From Escherichia coli (lineage in GTDB: Bacteria; Pseudomonadota; Gammaproteobacteria; Enterobacterales; Enterobacteriaceae), in NCBI RefSeq assembly GCF_051903065.1, contig NZ_CP178438.1: DNA of 64,000 nt; one strand, given 5' to 3'. The translations under genes were made by a program, and so were the position numbers. The notes beneath the pieces are model-generated. The model saw nothing but the letters and a program-made list of their open reading frames with translations, had not been told where the DNA came from and made no database searches. Positions within the stretch are counted from its first letter, which is position 1. Each line of letters starts with the position of its first letter. Below are positions 17,638-50,535 of the stretch, piece by piece.

Positions 17638-25620
<7,983 letters not shown>

Positions 25621-39498: not shown

Positions 39499-39858
39499 TT
39501 ACGAAAGAAGATGGCATTGTGGAATAGCCAGACTTCCTCGTGTTAACGTCCGACAAAATGCGTCATTGACAGCGGTTTCTCTGGAATGACAGATTTCATT
39601 CAGATAATGGATTAATGCTACAGCCCCACCAGCCGGACCAGTCAGTAAACGGGCATTGTGTTCTGCAATCAAAATTACCGTCGTTCCCTCAGAATGAGCG
39701 AGCCATTCTGGTACGGATATCTCGCTTTCAGCTGCTATCAATAGCTGCACTGAATAATCGCTATACGCATCTGATAATGATTGCACAGACCCACCGTTAA
39801 GAGGCTGGAAATCTTGCTGCCAGTCCTCACGGATAAAACCGCAGCCTCTACAGTGCAT
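39499..39858 (-). pseudogene. Orphan ORF immediately upstream of cobU; possible remnant of a lost cbi/cob gene (identity unverified)
   Basis: 119-aa ORF with no recognisable start context. It sits where Salmonella carries cbiP directly upstream of cobU. Confidence 0.3.
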
Positions 39859-40133
39859 TGTTGGTCAGTGCCTGCGAAGCAGACATTATCGCGCTGGTGC
39901 TTAATGCGGACGCACCGTGGTCACCTTTTTCGCCTGGCTTTATCTCGTCAATGAATCGTCCGATCATTGGAGTAGTCACCAAAGCAGATTTAGCCAGCAT
40001 GGAAGAAATATCTTTGGTGAAAGTTTGGTTACGGGAAGCTGGATCGCACAACGTGTTAGTAACCAGTGCGGTTAATAACAATAGAGTTGCAGAACTTTTT
40101 GCCTTGCTTCATACAGAAGATGTCTGTCGCTAA
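39858..40133 (+). pseudogene. C-terminal fragment of a EutP/PduV-family small GTPase (gene remnant)
   Basis: 91-aa ORF lacking the N-terminal P-loop but containing [11 protein letters not shown] (G4-like TKxD motif) in the arrangement seen in EutP/PduV proteins; no RBS. Confidence 0.4.
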
Positions 40134-45386: not shown

Positions 45387-45392
45387 TTTGAA

Positions 45393-45417
45393 GCCTCCGC
45401 CGCTGATACGGCGGAGG
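45393..45417. terminator. GC-rich hairpin between convergent sbcB and yeeD
   Basis: CCTCCGCCG-CTGATA-CGGCGGAGG; no clear U-tract. Confidence 0.4.
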
Positions 45418-45428
45418 ACAATGTTGGG

Positions 45429-45656
45429 TCAGGCTTTTTGAACGGTGATGCTCCACGCAGCATCGCCAATCTGCTGATAATCGGTGATGGCATGTCCTTC
45501 TTCTGCCGCCCACTGTGGGATTGCTTCAGTTGCCTGGGTGCAATCAAACTCAATTACCAACTCATCGCCGCTGGCCATTTCTGCCAGTGCTGCTTTTGCT
45601 TCTATGAGCGGAAACGGACAGACCTGCGTCACCACATCCAGCTTTTTAATCGCCAT
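45429..45656 (-). CDS. yeeD: TusA-like sulfurtransferase YeeD
   Basis: 75 aa with CPFP (CPxP) motif at the N-terminus. Confidence 0.85.
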   Translation of the reverse strand: MAIKKLDVVTQVCPFPLIEAKAALAEMASGDELVIEFDCTQATEAIPQWAAEEGHAITDYQQIGDAAWSITVQKA

Positions 45657-45669
45657 CTTTACACCTTAC

Positions 45670-46728
45670 TTAATTTGCCGCAGCAGTTGCCAGTCGCGCC
45701 TTACGCTGCGGTCGAACATACACAAGCCAGGACGCAGTCCAGACTCCGAGAATCATAAATACAAGGCCAATCCAGCCCTGCCAGGTCATCATTGCAGTCA
45801 TAACCAGTCCATTACCGATAGAGCAACCACCTGCAATACTGGCACCGAAGCCCATCAGTACACCACCTAACCCGCTACGTACTGTTGTTTGTGCATCAGC
45901 TGCGCGAACGCGGAACTCACGGCTCGCTTTGGCTGCAATAAATGACCCCACGAAGATCCCTAACACCAGGAAAACGCCCCAGTTAATGTATTTCACGTCA
46001 CCCGCGACCAGAAATTGCAGAATATTGGCCGTTGGGGAAGTGATTCCTAACCCAAACATGCGTCCGGTTGCTTCACTCAGGGGCCAGGCTAAAAGCGCAA
46101 TCAAACCGATGAGTACAGCAGTGACAAAGGGATGCCAGCGTTTTTCAAACAGAATATGAGCGATCCCGGTTCGGCGCGGCGGTAAAGTCGCGACTTTCAG
46201 TTTTGGCTTCTTCAACTCTTTCATCACCACCCAGAGCGTTATCACCAGCAAAACGGCGACCAACGGCCACACAGACAAATTAAAAGTCTCAGCAATAGAG
46301 TTATGTTCAGTAGTGTAGTGCTGCAAGGTTTGATTTAAACCACTGGCATGTGGAGAACGCATCACCGCACTCATCACCATATAAGTGAAAAGCGCGATCC
46401 AACTGCCGATCAATCCCTCACCCGCGCGATACCAGGTCCCGGTGGCACATCCACCCGCCAGAACAATTCCCAGCCCGAAGATATACCCACCTATAACAGT
46501 ACCAAGCCACGGGAACGCCCCGGCTTCGTAAGTCAGTAGGCCCGCCTGAATTAACGCAAAAACCCCCACGCTTTGTACCGAAATTGCAATCAGCAGGGCG
46601 TAAAACATGCGATTATTTTTCGCGATATACATATCGCGAAAACCACCTGTCAGGCAAAAACGCCCACGCTGCATGACAAATCCCAGCAGAGCACCACAAA
46701 TTAGCCCGCTTAATATCATTGAAAACAT
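45670..46728 (-). CDS. yeeE: YeeE/YedE-family membrane transporter (thiosulfate uptake)
   Basis: 352-aa polytopic membrane protein directly upstream of yeeD. Confidence 0.85.
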   Translation of the reverse strand: MFSMILSGLICGALLGFVMQRGRFCLTGGFRDMYIAKNNRMFYALLIAISVQSVGVFALIQAGLLTYEAGAFPWLGTVIGGYIFGLGIVLAGGCATGTWYRAGEGLIGSWIALFTYMVMSAVMRSPHASGLNQTLQHYTTEHNSIAETFNLSVWPLVAVLLVITLWVVMKELKKPKLKVATLPPRRTGIAHILFEKRWHPFVTAVLIGLIALLAWPLSEATGRMFGLGITSPTANILQFLVAGDVKYINWGVFLVLGIFVGSFIAAKASREFRVRAADAQTTVRSGLGGVLMGFGASIAGGCSIGNGLVMTAMMTWQGWIGLVFMILGVWTASWLVYVRPQRKARLATAAAN

Positions 46729-46906
46729 AAATTAATTAACCAGATGAATGTTAATGAGGAAATTATTCATGACTGGTGGAATGCAGACCAATAACCAAAT
46801 TCTCTAAATTAGAACAAATGGTTATTAATGAGGATTTCGATAAAAAAGAATAAAAAAACCGGAGCCAAATGTTCATTCGACTCCGGTTGATTATTAGAAA
46901 AGATGA

Positions 46907-48317: not shown

Positions 48318-48413
48318 TTTTTTGGATTCCTCAGCGACAACAACTGTCGATTTTTAGTAAATATCTATCCGGTACGAAGCCCGGCCTCTTGGTATGAATG
48401 ATTGGTTTGAAGC

Positions 48414-48450
48414 AAAAAATAACCGACGCTGATGAAACGTCGGTTTTTAG
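48414..48450. terminator. Bidirectional intrinsic terminator downstream of yeeY
   Basis: AAAAAAT-AACCGACG-CTGATGAAA-CGTCGGTT-TTTAG. Confidence 0.55.
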
Positions 48451-48531
48451 TCATTTTTTGACAGCGGCGCATTGTGCCTAAATGGGGGGGAAATGACAAG
48501 AGAATGAGAGGCTTGTCATAATAATTTTTCT

Positions 48532-49506: not shown

Positions 49507-50331
49507 TTACTCCAGCGGCATTACCAGCGGATCGGGATACTGGTATTCAAACCCCAGTTCATTACAAATCCGACTGCCATCAATAATCTTACCTTTGCCG
49601 CTGTCCAGACTATTTCTGAACTGCGGAGGTTCCAGCCCCAGTAAACGGGCCATCTGCGGATAGAAAACATTACGCGCAGGGTGAGCTGGCGCACATATAT
49701 TATAGATGTGTCCGCCTTTAGGTGCCTGTAACAACAGAGTGATAGCGCCAATAACATCTTCTAAATGGACTAAATTAACACCATGTTCACCATCAGGCGC
49801 AGTTTTTCCGGCAAAGAAGCGTCCGGGATGACGTCCCGGTCCGACCAGCCCCGCAAGACGCAGAATATCGACCGAAGTACCGGGTAAATTGTGCAGCCAG
49901 TCTTCGAGTTCTTCTAATACTCGTCCACTGTTGGTCACCGGATTACGCGGGGTGGTTTCTTTCACCGTGCCTTGCGCGTCGCCATAGACAGACGTTGAGC
50001 TGGTAAAAATAATGCGGGGAATACGATGGGCCAGCGCGCTATCCACTAACTCTTGTACCGCTTGTAAATAGAACTCATCGCCGGGGCCGCTACGACGTGC
50101 CGGAAGCGTAATGACCAGGGCGTCGGCATCCATCAGGGCATCCAGATCGTCAGAATCGCAAACTAACTCAGGCTCCATGCGAAGCAGATAGCTATCAATG
50201 CCACTCATTCGGGCCGCTTCGACACCATCTTGTGTGGTTTTACTCCCGGTGACTTGCCAGCCTCGCGCTGAAAGTGACATCGCCAGCGGCATGCCTAACC
50301 ACCCTAACCCGACAATTGCGACCTTTTTCAT
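49507..50331 (-). CDS. yeeZ: NAD-dependent epimerase/dehydratase-like protein YeeZ
   Basis: 274 aa; Rossmann N-terminus MKKVAIVGLGWLG. Confidence 0.8.
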   Translation of the reverse strand: MKKVAIVGLGWLGMPLAMSLSARGWQVTGSKTTQDGVEAARMSGIDSYLLRMEPELVCDSDDLDALMDADALVITLPARRSGPGDEFYLQAVQELVDSALAHRIPRIIFTSSTSVYGDAQGTVKETTPRNPVTNSGRVLEELEDWLHNLPGTSVDILRLAGLVGPGRHPGRFFAGKTAPDGEHGVNLVHLEDVIGAITLLLQAPKGGHIYNICAPAHPARNVFYPQMARLLGLEPPQFRNSLDSGKGKIIDGSRICNELGFEYQYPDPLVMPLE

Positions 50332-50435
50332 CCGTTATCTCCTGATACACCTTAGATCTATAAGGCTACGCTAGCGTATCAAAACTGACAATTCATTCTA
50401 TGAATGAAATCGAAACGGTTAGCAAATATACCATT

Positions 50436-50535
50436 GCCTGATGCGCTCCGCTTATCAGTCCTACAAAAACTTCAATATATTGAATTTACGCAACATTTGT
50501 AGACCAGATAAGGCATTCACGCCGCATCCGGCAGG
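50436..50535. repeat. BIME (two inverted REP units) between yeeZ and hisL
   Basis: GCCTGATGCGCTCCGCTTATCAGTCCTAC ... GTAGACCAGATAAGGCATTCACGCCGCATCCGGCAGG. Confidence 0.6.

Follow-up and report, generated by a model that had tools for sequence, protein, structure and literature searches.

Escherichia coli is described as importing thiosulfate for cysteine synthesis by two routes, CysPUWA and TsuAB (YeeE-YeeD), both of which fall into the same sulfur-starvation expression clusters. Although the task is the same, the proteins are unrelated: CysPUWA is an ATP-driven system with a periplasmic binding protein, whereas the action of TsuAB has been compared to group translocation. K-12 ΔcysPUWA grows on thiosulfate but ΔcysPUWA ΔyeeE does not (Tanaka et al., 2020; PMC7449682). 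In E. coli YeeE the cysteines C25, C94 and C302 are essential and not replaceable, and R223 also matters (PMC7449682); YeeD is required in vivo, likewise its C13 and C39 (Ikei et al., 2024; PMC11073785). The Spirochaeta thermophila proteins YeeE (StYeeE) and YeeE-YeeD (6LEO, 6LEP, 8J4C, 8K1R; the last two are the YeeE-YeeD fusion structures) belong to the same fold family as TsuAB and share its mechanism. StYeeE alone transports thiosulfate selectively in liposomes and has thiosulfate bound in the crystal (PMC7449682, PMC11073785). StYeeD decomposes thiosulfate via its CPxP cysteine, and in the complex, the structure of which was solved, YeeD docks at the cytoplasmic face of YeeE as the 'fourth cysteine' and contacts R28, R98, E101 and E261 of the S. 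thermophila protein (PMC11073785). The two systems differ in some points. StYeeE C22A still complements, whereas C25 of the E. coli protein is essential (PMC7449682), and the decomposition chemistry is known from the S. thermophila YeeD with its single cysteine, while E. coli TsuB has two (PMC11073785).

Two further comparisons are close. The selenium-related YedE/YedF of E. coli likewise consists of a Sulf_transp membrane protein and a TusA-like CPxP protein, but its locus and substrate differ from those of TsuAB. TsuB in addition has the fold and the CPxP active-site cysteine of TusA (YhhP), the sulfur carrier for tRNA thiolation and molybdenum cofactor synthesis. However, YeeD is no substitute for TusA, which itself does not decompose thiosulfate, and the partner of TsuB is a membrane protein (PMC11073785).

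We analysed a stretch of 64,000 nucleotides of E. coli DNA (the window), in which a YeeE-like and a YeeD-like gene lie at the same position as yeeE (b2013) and yeeD (b2012) in K-12, in the order dacD-sbcB-tsuB-tsuA-plaP-yoeI-yeeY of K-12 b2010-b2016. The features of the locus are collected in Table 1. A region of 1.8 kb matches E. coli 23CRST027 (NZ_AP045789.1) with 100% identity and carries the annotations sbcB, tsuB, tsuA and plaP there, and the coordinates of tsuA and tsuB agree with the RefSeq annotation of this identical chromosome.

Table 1. Features of the tsuA-tsuB locus, in window coordinates.
Feature	Position	Strand	Description and basis
tsuA (yeeE)	45670..46728	-	352 aa + stop; inner-membrane thiosulfate transporter, YeeE/YedE (Sulf_transp) family
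tsuB (yeeD)	45429..45656	-	75 aa + stop; cytoplasmic TusA-like sulfurtransferase, obligatory TsuA partner
tsuA-tsuB spacer	45657..45669	-	13 nt, with tsuB Shine-Dalgarno AAGGTG; read directly from the sequence
GC-rich hairpin without U-tract	45394..45417	.	10-bp stem in the 42-bp spacer between the convergent tsuB and sbcB stops
plaP intrinsic terminator	46857..46888	-	terminator scan: 14 pairs, then TTTTTATTCT; stem + TTTTTTT
Dyad ATAACC-N-TCTAA-N-TTAGA-N-GGTTAT	46791..46825	.	upstream of tsuA; candidate LysR-type activator site
GAATAATT box	46761..46768	-	-10-like, probable tsuA promoter; cross-species conservation

The membrane protein matches Pfam Sulf_transp (PF04143) over the full length of the model (E = 1.7e-119, 399.4 bits against a cut-off of 27, positions 1-310 of 310) and the small protein matches TusA (PF01206), also over the full length (E = 3.2e-19, 69 bits against 28.6), so both are real conserved genes and not chance ORFs. 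The curated cut-offs of the dedicated NCBIfam models are passed as well, with 710.1 bits against 645 for NF041049 (TsuA/YeeE; model positions 1-348 of 348) and 163.2 bits against 147.5 for NF041048 (TsuB/YeeD; full length). A reading made earlier from the sequence only had proposed a YeeE/YedE-family membrane transporter followed by a TusA-like protein of 75 amino acids with a CPxP motif, in the arrangement reported for thiosulfate uptake. The model matches, the C13-P-F-P16 motif and the RefSeq names tsuA and tsuB on identical DNA bear this out. Its intergenic distance of 14 bp has to be corrected, since 13 nt (GTAAGGTGTAAAG) separate the tsuA stop codon from the tsuB ATG and 14 is reached only by counting from the last base of the stop to the A of the ATG. 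The AAGGTG motif lies 5 nt before this ATG, and a 13-nt spacer with a Shine-Dalgarno sequence is consistent with co-transcription of both genes.

Judged from these sequence comparisons, the locus is with a probability of about 97% the E. coli tsuA-tsuB (yeeE-yeeD) operon, a second thiosulfate-assimilation route independent of CysPUWA, and nothing contradicts this identification. The pair is intact, ordinary, already known and fully characterised: papers from 2020 to 2024 cover its function, its structure and its key residues, and little new is to be gained from the intact copy itself. The coding block shares 98.8% nucleotide identity with K-12 (16 differences in 1300). The locus also agrees with K-12 in the gap of 13 nt, in the stem of the hairpin (one base of the loop differs), in the upstream dyad and in all functional residues. 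TsuA carries four conservative changes (A36, T139, V245 and V283 for V, S, M and L in K-12) and TsuB two (A2 and A28, both V in K-12), and all six sit in columns that vary among the relatives. In addition, the yefM-yoeB toxin-antitoxin pair, which lies a few kb off in K-12, is missing from the window strain.

A scan of a species-representative genome collection with TsuA gave 208 confirmed relatives, the best 80 of which were analysed for residue conservation. The best matches of TsuA among solved structures are S. thermophila YeeE (6LEO and 8K1R; E = 2e-43, 32% identity), and TsuB has its match in the YeeD portion of the 8K1R fusion. The pathway cysteines, the YeeD-contact residues and the CPxP cysteine of both systems align. 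TsuA has cysteines at positions 11, 25, 94 and 302, the last three of which are aligned with C22, C91 and C293 of S. thermophila. C25, C94 and C302, together with C13 and C39 of TsuB, are present and invariant in 80/80 loci. The loss of conserved cysteines from either protein, which the earlier reading had named as evidence against its proposal, is thus not seen. Equally invariant in all 80 loci are the periplasmic arginine R223, the residues R31, R101, E104 and E271, which correspond to the YeeD contacts R28, R98, E101 and E261 of the S. thermophila protein, and, in TsuB, the two prolines and also the phenylalanine of the CPFP motif. The same holds for TsuA N306, where N306A still complemented (PMC7449682). 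As a side observation, C11 is a fourth cysteine of TsuA that is invariant in the 80 loci; the S. thermophila protein has valine instead of a cysteine at this position, and the main text of the 2020 paper makes no mention of C11 (PMC7449682).

Downstream of tsuB, the earlier reading had pointed to a GC hairpin without U-tract. This hairpin is present, and no run of T follows the stem on either strand. In the tsuB-sense RNA it reads CCUCCGCCGU-AUCA-GCGGCGGAGG, with a dG of -21 kcal/mol and a z-score of -3.0 in a context of 61 nt or -5.3 when the 42-nt spacer is folded by itself. The nucleotides after the hairpin are CUUCAAA in the tsuB sense and ACAAUGUU in the sbcB sense; beyond the stem, T accounts for 2 of the 7 nt of spacer in the first case and for 3 of 8 in the second. 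The hairpin was not called in the terminator scan and, having no U-tract, lacks one defining feature of an intrinsic terminator. The short tsuB-sbcB spacers of other genera were assessed by folding each spacer against shuffles, as a MAFFT alignment has no structural register for short divergent hairpins. A comparable hairpin was found in 17 of the 19 spacers (z-scores -3.0 to -7.8), with 15 distinct 5' arms, e.g., CCCTCCGCC, GCCCTCCCG, GCGCCCCGC, GCCTCGCAC and TTCCCTCTGCG. T-rich tails are rare among them (5-6 T in 8 nt in Kluyvera, 6 in Citrobacter sp. L009). The position of the hairpin is kept while its sequence drifts, which argues for a function, and the element is probably a 3'-end element shared by the two convergent genes.

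What this function would be can be read in two ways. The hairpin could itself stop RNA polymerase as a non-canonical bidirectional intrinsic terminator. A stable GC stem exactly between two convergent stop codons, its recurrence at the same position in most of the short spacers and the T-rich tails of a few lineages speak for this, as does the finding that in E. coli without tsuBA sbcB is followed instead by a textbook bidirectional terminator (AAAAAAGCCGGAG..CTCCGGCTTTTT, with a second small hairpin). However, efficient intrinsic termination needs a U-tract, which is absent on either strand here and in most genera, and we regard such a terminator as rather unlikely. From general knowledge of transcript ends we prefer a protective stem: termination would take place further downstream, Rho-dependent or driven by collision, and exonuclease trimming up to the stem would leave one or both of the convergent transcripts with protected 3' ends. 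The tsuAB transcript would end at, or be trimmed to, a hairpin that it has in common with sbcB. With its conserved position and variable sequence, this U-tract-less hairpin between convergent genes offers a small natural case for asking how 3' ends of this kind arise.

For the region upstream of tsuA, the plaP-tsuA spacers of 31 Enterobacteriaceae were aligned. The plaP terminator (CGGAG..CTCCGG-TTTTTTT) is kept in 31/31 regions and separates plaP from the probable tsuA promoter. Between the terminator and tsuA, the core of the dyad, ATAAC-N25-GTTAT, is found in 28/31 regions with a fixed spacer of 25 nt, 61-66 nt before the ATG, and AATAATT is found 32-34 nt before the ATG in 25/31. Within the 64-kb window the dyad upstream of tsuA is the sole intergenic instance of the pattern, the other three matches lying in unrelated sequence. 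The half-site is no commoner than chance predicts (9 copies against 7.6 expected), so the window does not allow a regulon to be inferred. A sigma-70 consensus scan upstream of tsuA gave no full promoter and no good -35 element, as is expected for an activator-dependent promoter. The layout therefore resembles that of a promoter of this kind with a putative LysR-type site centred near -50, and transcription would start just downstream of the plaP terminator. A search with Rfam at a permissive threshold gave no known RNA family in the tsuA/tsuB intergenic regions; the sole match was STnc240 upstream of yoeI-plaP.

In published expression data tsuAB/yeeED goes up along with the cys, tau and ssu genes (PMC9841684, PMC9068703, PMC11938683), and tsuAB is a predicted CysB target (PMC3224099). 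Direct regulator-binding data for tsuAB were not found in the literature searched. CysB is the leading candidate for the regulator, and the operon would then belong to the CysB stimulon and respond to sulfur starvation with it. Alternatives are Cbl, which is encoded about 11 kb from tsuAB in the window, and the LysR-type regulator YeeY encoded by the neighbouring yeeY. The case for YeeY is weaker, because yeeY is kept in genomes without tsuBA. The sharply conserved, operator-like dyad is apparently uncharacterised and could serve to identify the direct regulator.

The operon is not found in all E. coli. The tsuB-tsuA block is present in 4208/5426 complete genomes, while 1211/5426 carry an empty-site allele, in which an unrelated 73-bp spacer with the bidirectional terminator mentioned above lies between sbcB and plaP. 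About 22% of the complete genomes are thus without the operon, which shows that tsuAB is dispensable in nature. A subset of the empty-site genomes, including an O25:H4 strain, has an IS200C copy directly after the sbcB stop, and strain HH45 shows a separate internal deletion with remaining gene fragments. Empty-site strains known by name are CFT073, UTI89, 536, Nissle 1917, ABU 83972, LF82, NRG 857C, IHE3034, UM146, SE15, NU14 and ATCC 25922, all 12 of which are established members of phylogroup B2. The recognisable B2 reference strains without the operon include CFT073, UTI89, 536, Nissle 1917 and LF82, and also the O25:H4/ST131 serotype.

The order plaP-tsuA-tsuB-sbcB(-dacD) is kept in about 30 species of other Enterobacteriaceae genera, the identity to Citrobacter is similar across the genes (TsuA 90-92%, SbcB 92-93%, PlaP 87-97%) and the GC content of the tsuBA cassette equals that of its flanks. 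Together this argues that the cassette is ancestral at the sbcB-plaP site, and its absence from E. coli genomes is probably a loss. Homologous recombination through the flanking homology may also have restored the cassette after such a loss. A recent horizontal gain in the non-B2 E. coli was considered too and is unlikely, as the GC content matches the flanks and the Citrobacter identities are alike. That TsuAB is a lineage-variable trait in E. coli, ancestral at sbcB-plaP in Enterobacteriaceae but missing from about 22% of the complete E. coli genomes including every recognisable B2 reference strain, is a tentative proposal that we hold with more doubt than confidence. A search of the literature for yeeE together with phylogroup B2 gave no paper linking the two. 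If the loss has a phenotype, these extraintestinal-pathogen and probiotic lineages would have CysPUWA as their sole thiosulfate route, with possible consequences for fitness in the gut or the urinary tract. The polymorphism, a sulfur-assimilation route that is cleanly present or absent across whole lineages, is easily tested by phenotype.

The steps of transport and decomposition were shown by others in K-12 and S. thermophila, and what is added here is the identity and the intactness of the allele. Growth on thiosulfate as sole sulfur source in a cysPUWA-negative background, suggested in the earlier reading as a check, was already published in 2020 and extended in 2024. By analogy to these systems, TsuA would pass the thiosulfate ion through its centre in the inner membrane along C302, C94 and C25 by transient S-H-S hydrogen bonds. 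TsuB would dock on the cytoplasmic face with R31, R101, E104 and E271 of TsuA at the interface, where its C13 would capture the ion as the 'fourth cysteine', become thiosulfonated and dissociate. The thiosulfate would then be decomposed to sulfide and sulfite for cysteine synthesis, a process for which C39 of the E. coli-type TsuB would also be required.

It could be argued that thiosulfate is the laboratory substrate only and that TsuAB takes up another reduced sulfur species in vivo, such as zero-valent sulfur or polysulfide. YeeE-like proteins were reported to help in the uptake of zero-valent sulfur, SoxT relatives import sulfur for oxidation or signalling (PMC11582611), and the TsuB cysteine forms a persulfide and other modified states (PMC11073785). 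However, StYeeE proteoliposomes are thiosulfate-selective, the crystal contains thiosulfate and the growth phenotype is specific for thiosulfate (PMC7449682, PMC11073785), so that we consider a different substrate very improbable. That the pair is the selenium paralogue YedE/YedF or another YeeE/YedE-family system (SoxT, PmpAB) and no thiosulfate system at all can practically be dismissed, as the common Pfam families (Sulf_transp and TusA) and the weak NCBIfam matches to YedE/FdhT and YedF are outweighed by scores far below the cut-offs of the YedE models NF033796/TIGR04112 (115.2 bits against 350 for YedE/FdhT, 52 against 200) and the YedF models NF008242/TIGR03527 (42.8 against 79, 28.7 against 110), whereas both Tsu models are passed, the locus has the b2013/b2012 position between sbcB and plaP, and published trees place the TsuA proteins on a branch apart from SoxT (PMC11582611); model scores and synteny together refute the YedE/YedF identity.

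The thiosulfate operon tsuA-tsuB keeps its organisation in other genera as well. Among the best 80 of the 208 TsuA relatives, which belong to Enterobacterales and Bacillales, tsuB lies directly downstream of tsuA in every locus, and the gap measures 10-21 nt in the 35 loci from Enterobacterales and usually 12 nt in those from Bacillales. The closest matches, with 73-92% identity, include Citrobacter, Kluyvera, Kosakonia, Leclercia, Lelliottia, Pseudocitrobacter, Siccibacter, Superficieibacter and a few Pectobacteriaceae-like genera, and the Bacillales relatives come next with 66-72%. The taxonomic spread within these best 80 is patchy, and other Escherichia species, Salmonella and Klebsiella are not among them. 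With a median identity of 68%, the sequences of Enterobacterales and Bacillales are nearly as similar to each other as those of Bacillales are among themselves (median 74%), which suggests an old transfer between the two phyla.

Of 5426 complete E. coli genomes, 4208 carry the tsuB-tsuA cassette, which encodes the thiosulfate transporter TsuA (YeeE) and its TusA-like partner TsuB (YeeD). Another 1211 have in its place an unrelated sbcB-plaP spacer of 73 bp, which contains a textbook bidirectional terminator. Among the strains with such an empty site, those that bear familiar names are classic phylogroup B2 references: CFT073, UTI89, 536, Nissle 1917, LF82, ABU 83972, SE15 and ATCC 25922. About 430 of the empty-site genomes, an O25:H4 strain among them, additionally carry a copy of IS200C directly 3' of the sbcB stop codon. 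E. coli HH45 has lost the interior of the cassette by an independent deletion. What remains is 177 nt of tsuB, now truncated, and a tsuA remnant of 111 nt that carries a pseudogene annotation. The coordinates of these and the other features are listed in the table.

Location of the features in the window and in the comparison loci from other genomes (L003, L004, L005 and L086)
Feature	Location	Strand	Remark
Whole tsuB-tsuA cassette	window 45387-46906		
Hairpin without U-tract	window 45394-45417		between convergent tsuB and sbcB
TsuA codon 11 (C11)	window 46696-46698		
GAATAATT box, -10-like	window 46761-46768		upstream of tsuA
Dyad ATAAC-N25-GTTAT	window 46791-46825		upstream of tsuA
STnc240 sRNA match (Rfam)	window 48412-48486	-	68.2 bits vs gathering score 55
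yeeZ-hisL spacer	window about 50025-50450		
Region with 360-bp hypothetical gene and EutP/PduV-family pseudogene	window about 39499-40133		between cobU and tmaR; annotated in the identical RefSeq record
Very large Ig-like domain protein gene (about 8 kb), then family-9 glycosyltransferase gene	window about 17638-25620	+	
Empty sites (no tsuBA)	L003:1688-1760, L005:3188-3260		
IS200C insertion at empty site	L004:1688-2472		
Internal cassette deletion, HH45	L086:3001-3853		

The TsuA proteins of Enterobacterales share 63-73% identity with those of Bacillales (Paenibacillus, Cytobacillus, Peribacillus and others; loci L041-L085), which is nearly as close as the Bacillales proteins are among themselves (median 74%). 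No representatives of other Escherichia, of Salmonella or of Klebsiella were detected among the best 80 of 208 TsuA matches. This pattern of identity and taxonomy suggests an old inter-phylum transfer as well as repeated loss.

In the same best 80 of 208 relatives, all of E. coli type, C11, the fourth cysteine of TsuA, is invariant (80/80), whereas the structural model of S. thermophila YeeE has a valine in its place. C11 goes unmentioned in the main text of the YeeE paper from 2020 (PMC7449682). That paper gives the important periplasmic arginine of E. coli YeeE as both R233 and R223, in its section 'Important residues around the center'. As TsuA has an arginine at position 223 and a threonine at 233, R233 is a typo.

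The dyad upstream of tsuA is strongly conserved (28 of 31 Enterobacteriaceae species) and looks like an uncharacterised site for a LysR-type activator, with CysB, Cbl or YeeY as candidate regulators. Beside the dyad and the -10-like box, no -35 element was found upstream of tsuA. At the other end of the cassette, the position of the tsuB-sbcB hairpin is kept in 17 of the 19 short spacers among loci L006-L035, and its stem sequence varies, with 15 distinct arms.

The STnc240 match lies between yeeY and yoeI-plaP; its location immediately before yoeI makes it the probable leader of the transcript for yoeI-plaP. In K-12 the yefM-yoeB toxin-antitoxin pair is located between yeeZ and hisL, whereas the window strain lacks it. 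The hypothetical gene between cobU and tmaR overlaps a truncated EutP/PduV-family pseudogene in the identical RefSeq record (NZ_AP045789.1). The Ig-like domain protein and glycosyltransferase genes adjoin a tRNA-Asn gene, and four tRNA-Asn genes are dispersed over this part of the window.
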